Part shown: one piece after another, positions 5,447-63,466 of the stretch
Numbering within the stretch: the stretch's first letter is position 1
How the letters are laid out: each line of letters begins with the position of its first letter
Source: Patescibacteria group bacterium
Lineage (GTDB): Bacteria; Patescibacteriota; Patescibacteriia; Patescibacteriales; WJLG01
Direction of reading: 5' to 3'
Length of the DNA stretch: 64,000 bases
NCBI GenBank assembly: GCA_028707065.1
Contig: JAQTUZ010000003.1
Coordinates: forward strand, 2,501-66,500
Notes under the pieces: generated by a model
What the model saw: only the letters and a program-made list of their open reading frames with translations
Told to the model about the DNA's origin: nothing
Databases searched by the model: none
Translations under genes and position numbers: made by a program

Positions 5447-5452
5447 ACAAGT

Positions 5453-5498
5453 CCCCTCTAGAGAGGGGTGGCTCGCGCCGCGTGAGACGGGGTGTGTT
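5453..5498. repeat. GC-rich two-hairpin repeat unit (family A, forward orientation)
   Basis: cccctctagagaggggtggctcgcgccgcgtgagacggggtgtgt. Other copies lie at 6371, 9048, 10507-10662, 11055, 13284 and 35540. Confidence 0.85.
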
Positions 5499-5558
5499 AC
5501 ATAATTTAAAATAATTAACATTAAAAAAATATAAATTTTATGGCTTTCAAAGAACAAT

Positions 5559-5793: not shown

Positions 5794-6381
5794 ATGAATA
5801 TCGAATACGAAGCGACATTTTTAAATATAGACAAGGAAGAAGCGAGAGAGCGATTAAAAAAGGCCGGCGCCAAATTGGTCAAGCCGGAAATTTTGATGAA
5901 GCGCTGTAATTTTACTTTGCCGAAAAATAACGAGATCGCCGGCAGCTGGGTCAGGGTGCGCGACGAGGGCGATAAAATTACCATGAGCGTTAAAATAATG
6001 ACCGGCGATAAGATCGAAGATCAGAAAGAGATTTGTCTTTCGGTTGATGAAATGGAAAAAGCGATCGATTTTTTGGAAACTCTGGGTTGCCGCAAAAAAT
6101 CCTATCAGGAAACTAAGCGGGAAACTTGGGAATTGGACAGCGTAATAATCACTTTGGATACCTGGCCGTTTTTGGAGCCGTTTGCCGAAGTTGAAGGTCA
6201 GTCCGAGCAGACTGTTAAGAGTGTAAGCGAAAAGATCGGTTTTGATTATACGCAAGCGCGTTTTTGCGCCGTCGGCACTCTTTATCATGAGAAATATAAA
6301 ATCCCGCAAGACGTTATCAATAACCATACGCCGGAAATAACTTTTGCCAAAAACCCATTTATAAATAATTCCCCTCTATAA
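5794..6381 (+). CDS. CYTH-domain protein (CyaB/ThTPase-like)
   Basis: The opening IEYEATFL (ExExK-like start of the CYTH fold), the later VRVRDEG..ITMSVK and the ~190 aa size fit the family. Confidence 0.7.
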   Translation: MNIEYEATFLNIDKEEARERLKKAGAKLVKPEILMKRCNFTLPKNNEIAGSWVRVRDEGDKITMSVKIMTGDKIEDQKEICLSVDEMEKAIDFLETLGCRKKSYQETKRETWELDSVIITLDTWPFLEPFAEVEGQSEQTVKSVSEKIGFDYTQARFCAVGTLYHEKYKIPQDVINNHTPEITFAKNPFINNSPL

Positions 6382-6419
6382 AGAGGGGTGGACTCGCGCC
6401 GCGCGAGGACGGGGTGTGT
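6371..6419. repeat. GC-rich two-hairpin repeat unit (family A, forward)
   Basis: cccctctataaagaggggtggactcgcgccgcgcgaggacggggtgtgt. It overlaps the last codons and stop of the CYTH gene. Confidence 0.85.
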
Positions 6420-6425
6420 AAAAAA

Positions 6426-8886: not shown

Positions 8887-9047
8887 CAAAAGTTTGCAGA
8901 AGGTCTGGTAGCTGGTATTTAGTAGTTGAGTCTTTTTGTCATCCTGAGCGCCGCGCGAAGGATCTATTAAGTAAAAATTGAATTTAGATTTAATTATCTT
9001 ATAACTGCCGTTGGTTGCATTATAAAAAATAATAATGTCAGGAATAG

Positions 9048-9093
9048 ACCCACCCCGTCTCGCGAGGCGCGAGCCACCCCTCCCAAGAGGGGA
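9048..9093. repeat. GC-rich two-hairpin repeat unit (family A, reverse)
   Basis: acccaccccgtctcgcgaggcgcgagccacccctcccaagagggga. Confidence 0.85.
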
Positions 9094-9124
9094 ATAAAAA
9101 AAGTTGAAGAAATAATTAATCTCG

Positions 9125-9180
9125 GCGCAGTTCCGACTTGTCCCGAGCTTGCCGAGGGAGGCGGAGACTGCGACGGAACC
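9125..9180. repeat. GC-rich repeat (module family A2, reverse)
   Basis: gcgcagttccgacttgtcccgagcttgccgagggaggcggagactgcgacggaacc. Its reverse complement shares ccgcctc...ggacaagtcgg with the pgk and metG inserts. Confidence 0.7.
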
Positions 9181-9782: not shown

Positions 9783-11384
9783 ATGTCCAAGTTTTATATC
9801 ACCACCACCCTTCCTTACGTCAATGCCGAGCCGCATATCGGGTTTGCGGCGGAGATTATCAAGGCGGATTGTTTAGCCAGATGGCACACGTTGCTGGGCG
9901 ACGAGGTATTCTTTAATACCGGTACCGATGAGCACGGGCAGAAGATCTATGAGAAGGCCAAAGAGGCTGGCATTGATCCGCAAACTTATTGCGATGAATA
10001 TGCGGCAAAATTCCGCAGCTTGAAAGAGCTGTTGAATTTAAGCGTGACTAATTTTATCAGGACGACCGATGAAAAACATATCAAAGCGGCGCAGGCTTTT
10101 TGGAAGCTCTGCGAGGCTAACGGTGATATTTATAAAAAGGATTACAAGATTAAATATTGCGTGGGCTGCGAGCTGGAAAAAACCGATTCGGAATTGGTAA
10201 ACGGCTGCTGCCCGTTACATCCGAACAAAGCTTTGGAAGAAATAAACGAAGAAAATTATTTCTTTAAATTTTCAAAATATCAACAACCGCTTTTGGATTT
10301 GTATAAAAATAATCCTGATTTTGTGAAGCCGGAAGAACGCGCTAATGAGATCAAGTCTTTTGTGGAAAGGGGATTGCAGGATTTTTCTATCTCCCGCCTG
10401 GCCACGAAAATGCCTTGGGGGATTCCGGTGCCGGGCGATGAGACGCAAGTGATGTACGTCTGGTTTGATGCGTTGGTTAATTATATAAGTTGTCTCGGAT
10501 GGCCGGATACAAACCACCCCCAGACCCCTCCTTCGGAAGGAGGGGGGCTGACACACCCCGCCTCGCCGGGCTCGGCACCCCTCTCGAGAGGGGACTTTGA
10601 CACACCCCGCCCTTCCACCCAAGGCGGACAAGTCGGCACCCCTCTTGATAGAGGGGACTTATTTAGTGAGTATTGGCCAGGATTACAGGTTTGCGGCAAG
10701 GATAATTTAAGGCAGCAGACCGCAATGTGGCAGGCAATGTTAATGTCGGCGGGATTGCCTAATTCCAAACAGGTTTTGGTTTTTGGTTTTATTACCGTGA
10801 ACGGACAAAAAATGTCTAAGTCGTTGGGGAATGTTGTTAATCCAGCAGAGATGGTGGTGAAATACGGACTTGATGCGACAAGATATTATCTTTTGAAAGA
10901 GATCAAACCTTTCGCTGATAGTGATTTTTCCTGGGAAAAGATGAATTTACTTTATACGGCCGACTTGGCCAACGGCATTGGAAATTTAGCCGCGCGTGTT
11001 TCAACTCTGCTCGAAAAAAATCAGATCGAAACTGTTTTGCTTACACCAACCATAACACACCCCGTCCGCCCAGGGGGCGTCCACCCCTCTCAAGAGGGGA
11101 CTTTTGCCGCATTCGCGGAGAAGATGGAACAATATGCCTTTGACGAAGCTTTGGGAGTATTATGGAAAAAAATTGCCGAGTGCGACGTAACCCTCACCGA
11201 AAAAAAGCCTTGGAAAATGGAAGACAAGGCGGAAATTAAAAAAGTCCTCGAGCCGATCGCCCAGGAAATATTGAATATTGCTTATTTACTGGCGCCTTTT
11301 ATGCCGGAAACTTCGGAAAAAATTATCAAGCAATATTCGGAAACGCAAATTAAAAAAAGCGATTCGTTATTCCCCAGAATCTAA
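9783..11384 (+). CDS. metG: Methionyl-tRNA synthetase, carrying in-frame repeat insertions
   Basis: TTTLPYVNAEPHIGFA (HIGH region), KMSKSLGN (KMSKS), and the anticodon-domain tail. Confidence 0.95.
   Translation: MSKFYITTTLPYVNAEPHIGFAAEIIKADCLARWHTLLGDEVFFNTGTDEHGQKIYEKAKEAGIDPQTYCDEYAAKFRSLKELLNLSVTNFIRTTDEKHIKAAQAFWKLCEANGDIYKKDYKIKYCVGCELEKTDSELVNGCCPLHPNKALEEINEENYFFKFSKYQQPLLDLYKNNPDFVKPEERANEIKSFVERGLQDFSISRLATKMPWGIPVPGDETQVMYVWFDALVNYISCLGWPDTNHPQTPPSEGGGLTHPASPGSAPLSRGDFDTPRPSTQGGQVGTPLDRGDLFSEYWPGLQVCGKDNLRQQTAMWQAMLMSAGLPNSKQVLVFGFITVNGQKMSKSLGNVVNPAEMVVKYGLDATRYYLLKEIKPFADSDFSWEKMNLLYTADLANGIGNLAARVSTLLEKNQIETVLLTPTITHPVRPGGVHPSQEGTFAAFAEKMEQYAFDEALGVLWKKIAECDVTLTEKKPWKMEDKAEIKKVLEPIAQEILNIAYLLAPFMPETSEKIIKQYSETQIKKSDSLFPRI
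10507..10662. repeat. Three stacked family-A/A2 repeat units inside the metG reading frame
   Basis: acacaccccgcctcgccgggctcggcacccctctcgagaggggactt, then acacaccccgcccttccacccaaggcggacaagtcggcacccctcttgatagaggggactt, preceded by a partial unit. Confidence 0.85.
11055..11104. repeat. Single family-A repeat unit inside the metG reading frame
   Basis: acacaccccgtccgcccagggggcgtccacccctctcaagaggggactt. Confidence 0.85.
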
Positions 11385-13280: not shown

Positions 13281-13283
13281 TTG

Positions 13284-13405
13284 GAAACCCACCCCGCCTC
13301 GCTCACGCTCGGCACCCCTCCCGGGGAGGGGAATAAAATGGAAACCCACCCCCAACTTCGCTCCGCCGAACGGAGCTACGATGGACAAGCCGGGGAAGGG
13401 GATAA
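13284..13405. repeat. Two tandem GC-rich repeat units (family A, then A2)
   Basis: aaacccaccccgcctcgctcacgctcggcacccctcccggggaggggaat, then aaacccacccccaacttcgctccgccgaacggagctacgatggacaagccggggaagggga. Confidence 0.8.
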
Positions 13406-30016: not shown

Positions 30017-30034
30017 AGCTAAAATTATAAATTA

Positions 30035-30072
30035 TGCCGACGCGAGGTCGGCATCCCGAGCTTACCCCGGGA
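30035..30072. repeat. Double-hairpin GC-rich repeat (second copy of 236-273)
   Basis: tgccgacgcgaggtcggcatcccgagcttaccccggga. Confidence 0.75.
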
Positions 30073-30166
30073 TAAATGATGAATGCTAAAATAATCCCGA
30101 TTGATAAATTTATCAACCATCAACTAACGTTTTTTTAATTTTTTATAGTCTTAAATATAGTACAAA

Positions 30167-35331: not shown

Positions 35332-35539
35332 GGAAAATTAATTTAGCCGATATTGTTAATATTATAGCACATCTTTATCATGGTCAACGCCGATAAGCTA
35401 TTATTTTTTTGTCTTAAAATTGGCCAAAATAATTTCTCTTGCCTATTTTAATCTTTTATGTTAACATTTAATCATTATTTATAGCATCAGCAAATGCTAT
35501 TTTATTTACTTAAATAATTTATTCGCGGTATTCGTAATT

Positions 35540-35582
35540 CCCCTCTCGGGAGGGGTGGCGCCGCCTCGGCGACGGGGTGGGT
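35540..35582. repeat. GC-rich two-hairpin repeat unit (family A, forward)
   Basis: cccctctcgggaggggtggcgccgcctcggcgacggggtgggt. Confidence 0.85.
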
Positions 35583-35607
35583 TATCGCGAAATTAGCCTT
35601 ATATTTT

Positions 35608-43366: not shown

Positions 43367-45403
<2,037 letters not shown>

Positions 45404-47050: not shown

Positions 47051-48637
47051 TTAAATTAATAAGCTGGTGCCGCTCATGATGGAGGGTTTTTTCTTGTTGA
47101 TAATATCCAAGATGGTCGGTGAAATATCGCAAAGCGAACCCCTGGTTTTTAATTTTTTAGCTTTAAGTTTATTATTCACCAGAATAAACGGCACCGGATA
47201 GATTGAATGTTCCGTATCAACCTCTCCGGTTTTCAAATTGATCATTTCTTCGATATTGCCGTGATCGGCGGTAATGATTACCGTGCCGTGTTTTTTCAAG
47301 TAAGCATCGGAAATTTTTTTAACGCACTTATCCAATATTTCGCAGCACTTAACGGCCGCTTTTAGGTTGCCGGTATGGGCCACCATGTCCGAAGCGGCAA
47401 AATTCAACACGGTAAAATCATATTTTCTCCGCGACAAATTGAGCAAAATTTTTCTCGTCAGTTCGATCGATCTCATCTGCGGGGTTTTATCATAAGACGA
47501 AACCGAGGGCGAAGGGATCATAAAATGGTCTTCGCCATTGATCATGCCGGCATAACCGCCATTGAAAAAGTAAGTGACATGGGCGAATTTTTCCGATTCG
47601 GCGATATAAAGCTGGGAAATATCGCTTAAAATAATAGGCAAGGTGCTGCAAATATCAACACTGGGGTAAGCCGAAAGAATGTTGTCCAAATCCGGACCGA
47701 AATCGGTCATGGTCACGAACAGCAAGTTTTCCAAATTCTTCTTTCTGATAAAAGATCCTTTGTTTCTTTTGGCAAAATTCTTTTGCACGAAAACTTTGGC
47801 TAATTGGCGGGCGCGGTCAGAGCGCAAATTGAAAAAAATCACCGAGTCATTGTCGCCGATCAAGCCTTGGCGGTTAATGACATAGGGTTTGATAAATTCA
47901 TCAGTTTCGTTGCGATTGTAGCTTTCAATGATCGCTTTTTCCGCGTCTGGCGCGTTCAAACCTTTGCCCAAAACCATGCAATTATAAGCAGCTTGGGTGC
48001 GGCTCCACTCTTTTTTTCTGTCCATCGCGTAAAATCTGCCTATCAAAGTGGCGATTTTAACATGATTTTTGACGTTCTTTTTTAAATTTTCCACGATGCG
48101 CAAGGCTTCGTGCTGGGGCGAATCGCGGCCATCGGTGAATAAATGCAAATAAACTTTCTTTACTTTGTTTTCTCGGGCGAGCCTGATCAGCGCCTCGAGA
48201 TGGCTTAAGTCGCTATGCGGACTCATGCCATTGGAAAGCATGCCCATTAAATGCAGCTTGGATCGTTTTTTTATGGCGTTTCGGCAAGCTTCCTTAAAAG
48301 CCGAGTTCTTAAAAAAAGTGCCATCCCTGATGCTGCGATTGATTTTTACCGCGTCTTGCTCTACCACTCTTCCCGCTCCGATATTCATATGGCCGGCTTC
48401 GCTATTGCCGACTTGATGCGGCGGCAAACCCACATAATGGCCGTGCGCGTGCAGCTTGGTATACGGATAAGTCCTGCTTAGGTAATTCAAGGCTGGTGTT
48501 TTAGCCAGATAGATAGCATTGCCGCGGCTAGACTTGGCAATTCCCCATCCATCCAGGATCACTAAAATCATCGGCAAGCCGCCCCACCTTTTATCCTGAA
48601 TCTTTTTTTTGCCTGATTTTTTTGATTTTTTTACCAT
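47051..48637 (-). CDS. gpmI: 2,3-bisphosphoglycerate-independent phosphoglycerate mutase
   Basis: ILDGWGIA, VGNSEAGHMNIGAGR (catalytic Ser) and TADHGNIEEM. The ATG at 48637 is preferred to the TTG at 48655, which lies in the repeat. Confidence 0.93.
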   Translation of the reverse strand: MVKKSKKSGKKKIQDKRWGGLPMILVILDGWGIAKSSRGNAIYLAKTPALNYLSRTYPYTKLHAHGHYVGLPPHQVGNSEAGHMNIGAGRVVEQDAVKINRSIRDGTFFKNSAFKEACRNAIKKRSKLHLMGMLSNGMSPHSDLSHLEALIRLARENKVKKVYLHLFTDGRDSPQHEALRIVENLKKNVKNHVKIATLIGRFYAMDRKKEWSRTQAAYNCMVLGKGLNAPDAEKAIIESYNRNETDEFIKPYVINRQGLIGDNDSVIFFNLRSDRARQLAKVFVQKNFAKRNKGSFIRKKNLENLLFVTMTDFGPDLDNILSAYPSVDICSTLPIILSDISQLYIAESEKFAHVTYFFNGGYAGMINGEDHFMIPSPSVSSYDKTPQMRSIELTRKILLNLSRRKYDFTVLNFAASDMVAHTGNLKAAVKCCEILDKCVKKISDAYLKKHGTVIITADHGNIEEMINLKTGEVDTEHSIYPVPFILVNNKLKAKKLKTRGSLCDISPTILDIINKKKPSIMSGTSLLI

Positions 48638-48648
48638 AATTATTTTTA

Positions 48649-48788
48649 TTATCAAGCGAAGCGAGCGAAATAATCCCGCGCCGCGCGGAGATTATTTCCG
48701 AGCGAGCGATGATAAGATTGGTTATCAAGCGAAGCGAGCGAAATAATCCCGCGCCGCGCGGAGATTATTTCCGAGCGAGCGATGATAA
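48649..48788. repeat. Tandem duplication (2 x 67 bp identical, period 73 bp) of a palindromic element
   Basis: ttatcaagcgaagcgagcgaaataatcccgcgccgcgcggagattatttccgagcgagcgatgataa occurs at 48649-48715 and again at 48722-48788. Each unit folds via gaaataatc/gattatttc. Confidence 0.9.
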
Positions 48789-50677: not shown

Positions 50678-51898
50678 TTATTCTAACCCGGGCATCCTCT
50701 CTCCGCCCAAATACGCGAGCATCGCTCCCCCGCCGGTGGAAATCCAATCGACATATCCTTCCATCTTGGTCATCTTTAAAGCCTCCAGGGTTTCACCGCC
50801 GCCAACCACGCCAAAAGTTTTGCCGCGGGATCGGGCCGCGATCAATTCTCCCAAGGCCATAGTTCCGTAGCGGTAATGTCTTTGTTCAAACGCGCCCAGC
50901 GGACCGTTCCAGACGATGGTTTTGGCTTTTTTGATCAAGGTCGAAAAAAGCATGATCGTCCGCGGTCCGATATCAAAAACAATGTCTTTGGCGCCGATAT
51001 CGTCGATCAACTTCACCAGCGCGGAACCGCGGTGGTTTACCACCACGTCCAAAGGCAAAACGATCTTTTTATCGCTCAATAATTTCTGGGCGATCGCCAC
51101 GCTTTCCTTATCCACTAAAGATCTGCCGACGTTCATCCCCATCGCTTTGAAGAAATTATTCGCCAAAGCCCCGCCGATCAATATTTTCGCCGCCTTATCC
51201 TGCAAATTCTTGATTAGTTTGATTTTAGTTTTGATCTTGGCTCCGCCCATCAGGATAATCAAGGGTTTGACGGGCTTTTTTATCTGGTCCAAATTAAAAA
51301 TTTCTTTTTCCAAAAGCAAGCCGGCAAAGGACGGCAAGAACCGCCGGATGGCGCTGACCGAAGCGTGGGCGCGATGACAGACCGAAAAGGCTTCATTGAC
51401 GTAAATATCGGCCGACCGTGATAATTCCCGGGCAAACGCCCGGTCGTTTTTTTCCTCGCCTCGGTTAAAACGCAGATTTTCCAGAAAGATTATTTTTCCG
51501 GGCTTAAGCGCTTTGATCGCCTGATCCGCTTCCTTGCCCACCGCGGCCGCGACGAATTTGACGCGATTGCCGCCCAAAATTTGATTTAATCGTTTAGCTA
51601 AAAATTTACAAGACAGTTGGGGAATTTTTTTCCCTTCCGGCTTGCCCGCCGACTTGTCCGCCGTAACCTTGGCAGAGGCGGAAGCTGTGCGAAGGCTGGG
51701 TTCGCCCAGGTGGGTCGCCAAGATCACCCGGCAGCGATAGCGCAATAAAAAACGGATGGTCGGCAAAGCGGCTAAAATTTTCGTCTCATCTTTAATCTTG
51801 GTCTTAACCCGCGGCACATTAAAATCCACTCGCAAAAAAACAGTCTTGCCTTTAATTTGTTGAATATCGTTGATAACTTTTAATTTCATAGCTGGCAA
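50678..51898 (-). CDS. pgk: Phosphoglycerate kinase (with an in-frame repeat-derived insert)
   Basis: GKTVFLRVDFNVP, ILATHLG, GGGETL and STGGGAMLAYL. Confidence 0.95.
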   Translation of the reverse strand: MPAMKLKVINDIQQIKGKTVFLRVDFNVPRVKTKIKDETKILAALPTIRFLLRYRCRVILATHLGEPSLRTASASAKVTADKSAGKPEGKKIPQLSCKFLAKRLNQILGGNRVKFVAAAVGKEADQAIKALKPGKIIFLENLRFNRGEEKNDRAFARELSRSADIYVNEAFSVCHRAHASVSAIRRFLPSFAGLLLEKEIFNLDQIKKPVKPLIILMGGAKIKTKIKLIKNLQDKAAKILIGGALANNFFKAMGMNVGRSLVDKESVAIAQKLLSDKKIVLPLDVVVNHRGSALVKLIDDIGAKDIVFDIGPRTIMLFSTLIKKAKTIVWNGPLGAFEQRHYRYGTMALGELIAARSRGKTFGVVGGGETLEALKMTKMEGYVDWISTGGGAMLAYLGGERMPGLE

Positions 51899-61951: not shown

Positions 61952-63466
61952 TTAAAGTTTTGCGATCGCCTTCTTTATTTTATCGATGGTTTCGGACTTG
62001 CCTAAAACATCGGCCATCTCAAACGGCGAAGGGCTGGCTTTTTCGCCGGTTAGCGCCACGCGCATCGGCCAGAGATAATCCCCCACCCCTTTATTATTAT
62101 CTTTGATATATTTAACCACGATCTCCTCTATTTTTTCCGTTTCCCAATCGGCATCAACGATTGCCTCCAAAATTTTCAATAAATCTTCCAACGAAGCGCG
62201 CGCGCTTTCGGGCGTTGATTTTTTCCAAACCAGCATCGCTTTATCGTATGACAGATTGTCCACAAAAAAGAATTTGGTATGCTCCCCTATTTCGGACAAT
62301 TTTTTCAGCCGTTCGCGTTCCAAGGCGATGACCTTGCCGACGAATTGATCGGATTTTTTATGTTCATTAGAGGTTAATTTAAGATTCTCTTCCAGATACG
62401 GTTTGCACAAAGCGATCAATTCCGGCAATTCCTTCTTGCGGATATAGATTCCGTTCAGATAATCCAGCTTTTCCGCGCTGAAAACCGCCGGGCTAGTCCC
62501 GATATCCTGATATTTGAATTCCGCGATTGCCTCATCCATGGAAAAAATTTCCTTCTCGCCGGCAGGATGCCAGCCCAAAAGCGCGTTGTAATTCAGCAAA
62601 GCTTCCGGCAGATAACCCTTGGCGCGGAAATCTTCCACGGCAACATCATTATTGCGCTTGCTCAATTTTCCGCCGTTCTTATCCAAAACCAAAGGCAAGT
62701 GGATGAATTTCGGCGCTTCCCAGCCGAAAGATTTGTAAAGCAAAATATTTTTCGGCAAAGACGATATCCATTCATCGGCGCGGACGACATGGCTTGTTTC
62801 CATCAGATGATCATCGACAACCACGGCGAATTGATAAACCGGTATGCCGTTCGATTTTATCAAAACATAATCATCCAGATCAACCAGATTGAATTTTATA
62901 TCGCCGCGCAATTCGTCATGCACGGTAATTTCTCCGGCAACGGGCAATTTGTGGCGGATGACATATTTTTCTCCGGCCGCGATCCTTTTAGCAACTTCTT
63001 CTTTGCTCAAGTCCCGGCAAGCGCGATCATAGCGCGGCGGTTTTTTCATCGCTTCGGCATCGGCGCGCATCTTAATCAATCTTTCTTCGGTGCAAAAACA
63101 AGGATAAGCCTCGCCCTTGGCCAATAATTCTTGAGTGTATTTTTTATAGATATCCAAACGCCGTGATTGAATGTATGGGCCGTAATCTCCAACATCCTTA
63201 TTCTCATTCGGATGGGCGGCATTCGTAGTGCCGCGGATAGATCCTGGACCTTCATCGAATTTTATCCCGACCCAGTCCAAAATCTCAATCAATTTTTCAA
63301 CAGCGCCCTCCACCTCTCTTTTTGAATCAGTATCTTCGATGCGCAAAAATAAAATTCCGCCCAACGATTTGGCGATCAGATAATTATAAAGCACGGTGCG
63401 CAAACTGCCGATATGCAGAAAACCGGTCGGCGACGGGGCGAATCTTAATCTGATTTTGTCGGACAT
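61952..63466 (-). CDS. gltX: Glutamyl-tRNA synthetase
   Basis: IRLRFAPSPTGFLHIGSLRT (HIGH) and KLSKRN (KMSKS). Confidence 0.95.
   Translation of the reverse strand: MSDKIRLRFAPSPTGFLHIGSLRTVLYNYLIAKSLGGILFLRIEDTDSKREVEGAVEKLIEILDWVGIKFDEGPGSIRGTTNAAHPNENKDVGDYGPYIQSRRLDIYKKYTQELLAKGEAYPCFCTEERLIKMRADAEAMKKPPRYDRACRDLSKEEVAKRIAAGEKYVIRHKLPVAGEITVHDELRGDIKFNLVDLDDYVLIKSNGIPVYQFAVVVDDHLMETSHVVRADEWISSLPKNILLYKSFGWEAPKFIHLPLVLDKNGGKLSKRNNDVAVEDFRAKGYLPEALLNYNALLGWHPAGEKEIFSMDEAIAEFKYQDIGTSPAVFSAEKLDYLNGIYIRKKELPELIALCKPYLEENLKLTSNEHKKSDQFVGKVIALERERLKKLSEIGEHTKFFFVDNLSYDKAMLVWKKSTPESARASLEDLLKILEAIVDADWETEKIEEIVVKYIKDNNKGVGDYLWPMRVALTGEKASPSPFEMADVLGKSETIDKIKKAIAKL

Follow-up and report, generated by a model that had tools for sequence, protein, structure and literature searches.

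Palindromic repeats within bacterial genes

Repeats inserted in frame within protein-coding genes are a known phenomenon, represented by Rickettsia palindromic elements (RPEs) and by intragenic repetitive extragenic palindromes (REPs). REPs tagged with GTAG or CGTC have been reported inside genes, some wholly within the open reading frames (ORFs) of known proteins, including tRNA synthetases (Di Nocera et al. 2013, PMC3733652). More than half of these intragenic inserts are dimers or groups encoding 20-30 amino acids, and their proposed neutrality is based on a position in loops or linkers; REPs in some cases lie inside other palindromes, and some families are called species-specific (PMC3733652). 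RPEs are palindromic repeats lying in frame inside genes that probably still encode working proteins (Ogata et al. 2000, as summarized in PMC3184786 and PMC3733652), and they were described from Rickettsia, with a length of about 105-146 nucleotides (nt; PMC3184786). Here we analyze a 64,000-nt stretch from a Patescibacteria group bacterium (assembly GCA_028707065.1, contig JAQTUZ010000003.1, positions 2,501 to 66,500 of the forward strand; hereafter the window), in which pgk, the gene for phosphoglycerate kinase (PGK), carries 20 additional codons. We consider it probable that these 20 extra residues stem from a small hairpin repeat, non-autonomous and similar in kind to REPs or RPEs, that was inserted in frame.

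Like REPs, the motif found in pgk is short, GC-rich and palindromic, and its copies lie mostly between genes and sometimes in ORFs; its reverse strand reads GTAG followed by a small palindrome, CCTTGGCGAAGG, which is REP-like. In contrast to a GTAG REP, the GTAG of the motif lies inside the loop of a covarying hairpin and is not an unpaired terminal tag. It is terminal only for an alternative 4-bp mini-hairpin (CCTT-GGCG-AAGG), and the invariance of CTAC/GTAG among copies was imposed by our search pattern. The dimensions also differ: REPs are 20-40 bp palindromes with stems mostly of 6-9 bp and mostly very short loops, whereas the motif has a stem of 5 + 3 bp, a 2-nt bulge and a conserved 14-nt loop. 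Its 34-nt core is near-identical across phyla, while some REP families are species-specific. No REP-associated tyrosine transposase (RAYT, of the Y1 HUH type) was seen beside motif copies in about 120 loci, each at most 8 kb long, although a RAYT gene, being single-copy, may lie elsewhere in a genome, and six motif-derived peptide strings were not found in the supplementary files of the REP survey (PMC3733652).

The in-frame palindrome insertion that characterizes RPEs was found for the motif in six genes, namely pgk, gltX and those for SMC, TsaD, a Xer-type recombinase and a ThiI/QueC-like ATPase. With units of 30-60 nt and widespread hosts, the motif does not, judged by size and hosts, belong to the RPE family. 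REP doublets forming hairpins (REPINs) pass mostly by vertical descent within lineages, and single-copy RAYT transposases copy them (bioRxiv 10.1101/2022.05.22.493013). A REPIN is an inverted pair of short units forming a longer hairpin, and non-autonomous; the two-unit copies of the motif are similar in architecture. Unlike the REPINs of that account, the present family has a core common to several phyla, lineage-specific flanks and no transposase seen near its copies. [quoted passage not shown] They are usually longer than the motif, at 70-300 bp (PMC3733652) or up to about 400 bp (PMC3184786), and have terminal inverted repeats and target-site duplications, neither of which was obvious by eye at the two sites compared here, the junctions in pgk and gltX. 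PARCELs (PMC2996958), which are 25-residue tandem protein repeats, are different from the motif.

A 20-codon insert in pgk

The window Pgk matches, at 100% identity, a public protein from a Patescibacteria group bacterium that is annotated as phosphoglycerate kinase and carries PF00162, and the PGK structures 1VPE and 1PHP align with it over residues 2-402 (E = 1e-84 to 1e-85), in agreement with membership of that family. We took the ATG of the public annotation as the start; the ORF list begins at a TTG at 51898. The limits of the insert were set against two loci from other genomes, L002, which is the closest relative (syntenic locus, pgk 77% identical in nucleotides), and L001, which encodes homolog P0016 (70% protein identity). 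The features of the locus are as follows.

50678-51889, minus strand: pgk (phosphoglycerate kinase), the host gene; an ORF of 403 amino acids (aa) from ATG
[quoted passage not shown]
51648-51685, minus strand: inner unit, the conserved family core GCTTCCGCCTCTGCCAAGGTTACGGCGGACAAGTCGGC, from the profile match and copies in other genomes
51681-51697, minus strand: outer left half-unit AGCCTTCGCACAGCTTC, 16/17 identical to the 30-nt insert of L001
51638-51650, minus strand: outer right half-unit GGCGGGCAAGCCG, of which GGCGGGCAAG is identical in L001
51626-51637, minus strand: original target-side codons GAAGGGAAAAAA (EGKK), where relatives have GGCGGCAAAAAG, from sequence comparison

The protein runs ...ATHLGEP-SLRTASASAKVTADKSAGKP-EGKKIPQLSC, and the coding-strand DNA of 51638-51697 is AGCCTTCGCACAGCTTCCGCCTCTGCCAAGGTTACGGCGGACAAGTCGGCGGGCAAGCCG. 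The insert has a G+C content of 67%, against 49% for the pgk gene. At 60 nt its length divides evenly by three, and the pgk frame runs through it without a stop codon. We compared the 120 best Pgk homologs; the 14 closest full-length ones among the matches listed (69-81% identical, all 383 aa) lack the insert and read THLG(E/D)P-GGKK with normal spacing to the next helix, and the Thermotoga maritima (1VPE) and Bacillus stearothermophilus (1PHP) enzymes show a clean 20-residue gap after HLGRP. A preliminary description of this locus had placed about 20 extra residues after THLG, within 51632-51700. The count proved to be exactly 20, after HLGEP, and the ortholog and structure comparison that it proposed found no equivalent loop in the closest orthologs or in 1VPE and 1PHP; its 69-nt span contains the insert together with 3 + 6 flanking bases. 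We saw no sequence sign of an intein, an intron or translational bypass, the segment being short, in frame and stop-free, though no specific test for these was made.

In L002 the site is empty and reads GAACCC/GGCGGCAAAAAG, with the slash marking the junction. L001 carries a 30-nt insert at the identical junction, CCC/AGCCTTCGCACGGCTTCGGCGGGCAAGACT/GGCGGC, which encodes SLRTASAGKT. The window insert corresponds to the L001 insert with 30 further bases, CGCCTCTGCCAAGGTTACGGCGGACAAGTC, in its middle; the left junction, CCC/AGCCTTCGC, is common to both, and the shared parts of the two inserts are identical at 26/27 positions. The genes as a whole are 68% identical, and 46% at third codon positions (P = 4e-4).

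The window Pgk and most of its closest homologs (to about P0046) have HLG(E/D)P in place of the usual HLGRP of PGK, the THLGE codons of the window lying at 51698-51712, so that the position equivalent to Arg65 is acidic (Glu or Asp) in this clade. In PGK, Arg65 takes part in binding the phosphate of 3-phosphoglycerate and, once the enzyme has closed, in a salt bridge. The equivalent of Arg38 is Lys in many Patescibacteria Pgk sequences.

A hairpin repeat family that spans phyla

The lead to a family outside the window came from gltX of L002, which has an in-frame insert resembling that of pgk. This insert of about 57 nt (YAKASTFAKATEDKSGDAA..., at 445-520 of L002) lies after GWSP and encodes YAKASTFAKATEDKSGDAASGMS. 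Across 46 nt it shares about 80% of its bases with the pgk insert, and it is read in the same frame. The window gltX (61952-63466, minus strand) lacks it, so the pgk and gltX copies show opposite presence and absence in the window genome and L002.

We used a pattern common to the two inserts, GCNAAGGYTACGGNGGACAAGTC, to scan reference genomes, taking one genome per species. At least 120 DNA stretches matched, against about 2 expected by chance on our own estimate. Those listed span Acidobacteriota, Verrucomicrobiota, Planctomycetota, Patescibacteria, Cyanobacteriota and several Proteobacteria; the Patescibacteria among them are Doudna-, Harrison- and Saccharibacteria and WWE3, and the cultured isolates are Bradyrhizobium and Geomonas strains. 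Eleven upstream positions that lie outside the pattern are conserved in the aligned copies (CTTCCgCCTTC), and the resulting core is CTTCC[G/A/T]CCTTC-GCCAAGGCTACGG[C/A/T]GGACAAGTC-G, which may be written CTTCCGCCTTCGCCAAGGCTACGGCGGACAAGTC / CTTCCNCCTTCGCCAAGGCTACGGNGGACAAGTC. The window insert agrees with 9/11 of these additional positions. A profile built from the 118 copies with enough flanking sequence matched the pgk insert with E = 1.8e-11 and the L002 gltX insert with E = 6.5e-13 (nhmmer); a broader profile, run by nhmmer over the window, matched the pgk insert with E = 4.1e-12, and 35/38 bases were equal to the consensus. The derivation of the insert from a repeat, which the preliminary description had proposed, thus finds its support outside the window.

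The likeness extends beyond the core. The pgk insert is a two-unit copy in the order left unit, left unit, loop, right unit, right unit, and all of its 60 nt are collinear with two-unit copies of Acidobacteriota and other phyla. In the outer right half-unit, 12 nt (GGCGGGCAAGCC) match the outer right unit of an Acidobacterium copy (L062) at 12/12 positions. As a negative control, the family search gave no match better than E = 0.17 in 274 kb comprising 80 other pgk loci, which came from a metagenome scan for closer pgk relatives that yielded none above 62% identity. A pattern for the outer units, CCTTCGCACRGCTTCN{0,30}GGCGGGCAAG, which the window insert matches, had 0 matches in the reference genomes, among which the source genome is not included.

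These results bear on two alternative origins. The residues might have arisen in place, by replication slippage in Ser, Ala and Lys codons, with a likeness to the family that is only compositional; there are indeed short internal near-repeats in the insert (TCCGCC/TCTGCC and ACGGCGGACAAG/TCGGCGGGCAAG), and half-units grow in tandem in other copies (L008, L084 and L096). The match of 35/38 bases to a consensus from unrelated genomes, the collinearity of all 60 nt with two-unit copies elsewhere and the lack of anything comparable in the 274 kb of other pgk loci effectively refute slippage, which we regard as highly improbable. The insert might instead be an assembly or binning artifact of a metagenome-assembled genome (MAG), and the exact protein is recorded from one contig only. 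It is, however, in frame, with seamless junctions, within a long syntenic contig; an independent assembly of the Joint Genome Institute has a related insert at that site, and motif copies are also present in cultured isolates (Bradyrhizobium and Geomonas). An artifact, too, we consider highly improbable.

The insertion of a repeat remains the explanation that we favor, and the family appears to be new to the literature, as does the conservation of its core across phyla. In a comparison of 10 motif loci with Rfam 15, only tRNAs reached the gathering threshold, and relaxing the cutoff to E = 10 yielded only low-scoring chance matches. A full-text search for motif strings, both DNA and peptide, turned up no paper, though the family may be described under another name or outside the literature searched. 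Among plasmids there were only three weak 23-nt matches and among phages none, while viral contigs of IMG/VR gave 2 motif matches; this near-absence makes plasmids and phages an unlikely vehicle. A search with the translated motif retrieved 14 proteins, all of 34-73 aa and all but one without a recorded Pfam domain, which are probably miscalled ORFs over repeat copies.

The reverse strand of the core, TTGGCGAAGGCGG, contains a 12-mer, TGGCGAAGGCGG, which we take to occur also in the conserved region of 16S rRNA around Escherichia coli position 720; this may be coincidence.

Hairpin, half-units and nesting

In the core hairpin, CTT-CCNCC pairs with GGNGG-(ac)-AAG around the conserved 14-nt loop TTCGCCAAGGCTAC. 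The variable N:N pair was G-C in 62 of the 118 copies, T-A in 12, A-T in 5, G-T in 4 and C-G in 2, with A.C in 24 and other non-pairs in 9. Pairing was thus retained in 85/118 copies, compared to 62.7 +/- 3.0 in shuffles, and where the 3' base was not C, 23/25 copies paired. The consensus folds at -16.9 kcal/mol (z = -1.9). In the inner unit of the pgk insert, the stem is CTT-CCGCC / GGCGG-ac-AAG with a 14-nt loop, and both stem pairings are intact.

Two-unit copies are common (for example L062, L041, L090, L118, L121 and L068) and have an additional left half-unit, CCNCCTTCGCCGAGG, upstream and an additional right one, GGNGGrCAAG, downstream, an architecture that the pgk insert matches. The insert of L001 is a one-unit form, comparable to the variants CCTCCTTCGCCAAGGCTTCGGCGGGCAAGCC (L079) and CCTCCTTCGCTAAAGCTTCGGCGGGCAAGCC (L080). 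Left units of 18 nt and right units of 12 nt also occur in tandem runs (L008, L084 and L096).

The flanks of the core vary by lineage and often form a further stem. In several copies from Vicinamibacterales and other MAGs (L007, L043, L095 and L122), the core occupies the loop of Vicinamibacterales GTAG-type palindromes, with the arrangement GTAGGGGCCGCC[core]AGGCGGCCC in the L007 group. It likewise lies in the loop of Bradyrhizobium repeats (L021, L025 and L053) and of other palindromes (L024 and L028); loci of the Bradyrhizobium type (L021, L025, L053, L092 and L097), at least three of which are from isolates, read GGATTGC[core]GCnGCGCTCGCAATGAC. This replacement of palindrome loops by the core would fit either a core that inserts into hairpin loops or a 'cargo loop' common to these repeats.

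Of the core's six reading frames, five are open, and the in-gene copies found, a small sample, use the two frames that give hydrophilic peptides of Ala, Ser, Lys and Asp. Besides pgk and gltX, in-frame copies are present, in low-GC genomes, in the genes for SMC (L074, in reverse orientation, reading DLSAVALAEAEK), TsaD (L117, DLSTVALAKAD), a Xer-type recombinase (L103, SSSAKATEDKS) and a ThiI/QueC-like ATPase (L071, SSFAKATADKS). At low-GC loci, copies lie mostly outside any long ORF.

History of the pgk site and movement of the repeat

In a neighbor-joining tree, the window Pgk is sister to P0002, which has no insert, and the other members of the surrounding clade all lack it as well; P0016, the homolog from L001, falls outside the clade that holds the window Pgk and P0002. 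A single ancient gain would, with this placement, need about five precise losses. The tree and the 26/27 identity of the shared parts together favor two insertions at the same pgk site or the import of a segment, and we infer that the site was hit twice independently; ancestry with losses is less likely. In its full form, this last explanation makes the insert ancestral to a wider clade: the window and L001 lineages would have received it by vertical descent, all lineages between them would have lost it precisely, and the window copy would later have gained 30 nt in its hairpin loop. The agreement of codon position and left junction between the window and L001 fits this history, as does the nature of the window insert as an L001 insert with an internal addition, and palindromes are prone to deletion. 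On the other hand, the losses required by the tree, about five, would each have to be independent and exactly in frame, and the junctions have no flanking direct repeat that would favor precise excision. The 26/27 identity, against 68% for the genes (P = 4e-4), fits a recent common source or constraint on the element rather than old shared ancestry. On balance, we consider vertical inheritance unlikely.

Several observations weigh against the insertion of a mobile repeat into pgk. There is some circularity in the profile E-value, as the window and L002 inserts were the source of the search pattern; the scan excess, the 9/11 match in the flank, the 12/12 match to L062 and the negative control are support independent of this circularity. 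There is one clear copy in the 64-kb window (plus one degenerate copy and fragments), which does not point to a high copy number in the window genome. For the pgk copy, the hairpin prediction does not surpass shuffled sequence in stability (z = -0.8), so that the support for structure comes from covariation and not from folding energy. Neither a transposase nor any other gene recurs beside the motif in the roughly 120 loci; the largest cluster of neighboring proteins covers 7 loci, and six cluster members, inspected by eye, looked like ordinary metabolic or housekeeping proteins. At the pgk and gltX junction pairs, examined by eye with no dedicated repeat search, there are no obvious terminal inverted repeats or target-site duplications. 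Finally, an insert at the same site in two lineages also fits ancestry with several losses, or recombination.

On our reading, the hairpin repeat entered pgk between the HLGEP and GGKK codons, in a loop that is already variable among Patescibacteria. At both empty sites the downstream sequence resembles the right half-unit GGCGGACAAG, the sites reading CCC/GGCGGCAAAAAG in pgk and CCT/GCCGGCGAGAAG in gltX, and both targets resemble CCY/GSCGGCRRRAAG. From these two sites, the resemblance hints at targeting by similarity. Our leading guess is that the repeat could be moved by a trans-acting enzyme acting on single-stranded hairpin DNA, or alternatively that it may spread by template switching primed by the similarity of the target to the 3' arm of the element.

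We put forward more tentatively, as a possibility that may well not hold, a wider picture. In it, Acidobacteriota, Verrucomicrobiota, Planctomycetota, Proteobacteria and Patescibacteria have in common, with hardly any change, a so far undescribed hairpin module of some 35 nt whose sequence is conserved. The module would be found preferentially in the loops of palindromes particular to a lineage, namely Vicinamibacterales GTAG REPs, Bradyrhizobium repeats and the repeat of the window, and in those of its own copies. It would grow by left half-units of 18 nt and right half-units of 12 nt, each length a multiple of three, and in reduced Patescibacteria genomes it would colonize essential genes in frame, the same pgk codon boundary twice, beside a sequence similar to its own 3' arm. 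Were this the case, one short sequence would be spreading across phyla by way of a broadly conserved trans-acting factor, or of copying guided by structure or homology.

With pgk, a central enzyme of glycolysis in a reduced Patescibacteria genome joins the carriers of translated selfish repeats, and one odd protein insertion of Patescibacteria is explained without a new function. Should the family hold up, it provides a concrete sequence with which to ask what recognizes and copies such hairpins and how often protein loops are remodeled by them. For annotation, the motif yields spurious small 'hypothetical proteins' and unexplained indels in marker-gene alignments.

Consequences for the Pgk protein

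As the insert has a length that is a multiple of three and no stop codon, it is probably translated with Pgk, as a 20-residue surface loop. In an AlphaFold2 model built with 30 homologs, the PGK fold is kept (mean predicted local distance difference test score, pLDDT, of 89.8; predicted template modeling score, pTM, of 0.86), and the only segment with a pLDDT below 50 is residues 68-84, within the insert. The insert peptide is hydrophilic (Ser, Ala, Thr, Lys and Asp) and is predicted to form a disordered surface loop that leaves the fold intact. All 73 columns invariant across the 30 homologs are kept in the window Pgk, which is true by definition for the first sequence of the alignment.

The spacing of this loop in Patescibacteria Pgk ranges from 12 to 38 residues and is usually 18. 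Other Pgk sequences (P0048, P0058, P0061, P0064, P0070, P0092 and others) have unrelated loop expansions of about 4 to 18 residues that are mostly rich in Lys; the loop of P0061 reads PPCPPLSGG and could by its look be of repeat origin. Judged from these alignments, the loop after the HLG motif appears to be a hotspot for length change. The trypanosomatid enzyme PGKA, a working PGK, offers a parallel, in that its N-terminal half likewise carries an insertion specific to the lineage; that insertion differs from the present one in being eukaryotic, much longer and not known as repeat-derived. It comprises about 80 residues, and its deletion leaves the catalytic activity of the Trypanosoma cruzi enzyme unchanged (PMC7729029). 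The variable loop length, the invariant columns (retained by definition) and the PGKA case together indicate that an insertion here can be tolerated.

The preliminary description had placed the insert close to the 3-phosphoglycerate-binding surface and had regarded tolerance there as not trivial. The location is right: Arg65 and His62 of PGK bind the phosphate end of 3-phosphoglycerate (PMC7729029), and the insert starts two residues after the Arg65-equivalent position. The concern about tolerance was overstated, given loops of 12-38 residues and a model with an intact fold. This location, next to a position that is Glu or Asp in this clade, would fit an insert kept for a function, whether as a hairpin in the mRNA that affects translation or stability, as a binding site for a conserved factor, or as a peptide that alters Pgk near its 3-phosphoglycerate site. 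The conservation of the core across phyla and the covariation of its stem also imply that something recognizes the core. Yet the closest relatives manage without the insert; copies are found in either orientation, in genes unrelated to one another and between genes; the prediction for the peptide is disorder, and no Rfam family matches. Selection for such a function thus seems to us a rather remote prospect, and we infer that the insert is a tolerated passenger with a neutral peptide and not a functional module.

Related and separate repeats in the window

A search confined to the window gave one shared 15-mer, in metG, and two shared 12-mers, in gyrB, which are too weak alone to establish a family. 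The relatives of the insert in the window are as follows.

10623-10637, plus strand: right half-unit fragment GGCGGACAAGTCGGC in metG; exact 15-mer, nhmmer E = 0.0046
45130-45168, plus strand: probable degenerate copy with a 9-nt internal insertion in the C-terminal linker of gyrB; nhmmer E = 4.3e-4
13356-13391, plus strand: diverged intergenic relative GCTACGATGGACAAGCC / CTTCGCTCCGCCGAACGGAGCTACGATGGACAAGCC; nhmmer E = 0.1, a weak match

The fragment in metG is the sole exact recurrence of the 15-mer GGCGGACAAGTCGGC in the window (blastn-short E = 0.007). The sharing of sequence between pgk and metG, noted in the preliminary description, stands, limited to this 15-nt 3' half-unit. No intergenic copies of the 15-mer, which it had also listed, were found; the one intergenic relative, at 13356-13391, is diverged. 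At up to 2 mismatches GGCGGACAAGTCGGC has 3 matches in the window, against 0.1 expected; one of them, which has 2 mismatches and falls within gyrB (43694), appears to be fortuitous. The metG fragment is nested in the variable hairpin of a copy of a different, local repeat (10601-10660), and the intergenic relative is nested in another copy of it (13340-13405).

The gyrB gene (43367-45403, plus strand) shares two collinear 12-mers with the pgk insert in its linker. The linker (45127-45168), which precedes a conserved block, is 7 residues longer than in two relatives (LSAEEADDDKS), and the shorter linker of these relatives is also motif-like (CTTTCCGCCGAAGAAGCT...GACAAATCC). From this comparison the linker is a probable degenerate copy, which may be old and decayed.

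The local repeat is GC-rich and constitutes a separate family, ACaCACCCCG-[variable hairpin]-CACCCCTCnnnnGAGGGGAcTT. We considered whether the pgk insert could be a copy of this abundant repeat (ACACACCCCG...CACCCCTCnnnnGAGGGGA) and rejected this, as both hallmark blocks are missing from the insert. Within metG (9783-11384, plus strand) there are three tandem in-frame copies and one more (10513-10660 and 11050-11102), which encode ...THPASPGSAPLSRGDFDTPRPSTQGGQVGTPLDRGDL... and ...THPVRPGGVHPSQEGTF...; further copies lie at 5449-5499, 6373-6421, 9044-9094, 13282-13335, 13340-13405 and 35533-35592. In two copies of the local repeat, the variable hairpin contains pieces of the cross-phylum motif.

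Two other repeats were observed in the window. A 73-nt unit (...TTATCAAGCGAAGCGAGCGAAATAATCCCGCGCCGCGCGGAGATTATTTCCGAGCGAGCG) occurs twice in tandem at 48636-48781, with 92% identity, upstream of eno; the tandem overlaps the 5' end of the ORF at 47051-48655, and there is an inverted partial copy at 118-151. A two-hairpin repeat (ATGCCGACGnnnnGTCGGCATCCCGAGCTTnnCnCGGGA) is present at 224-292 and 30023-30091, with 74% identity between the copies, and a related piece lies at 9131-9160.

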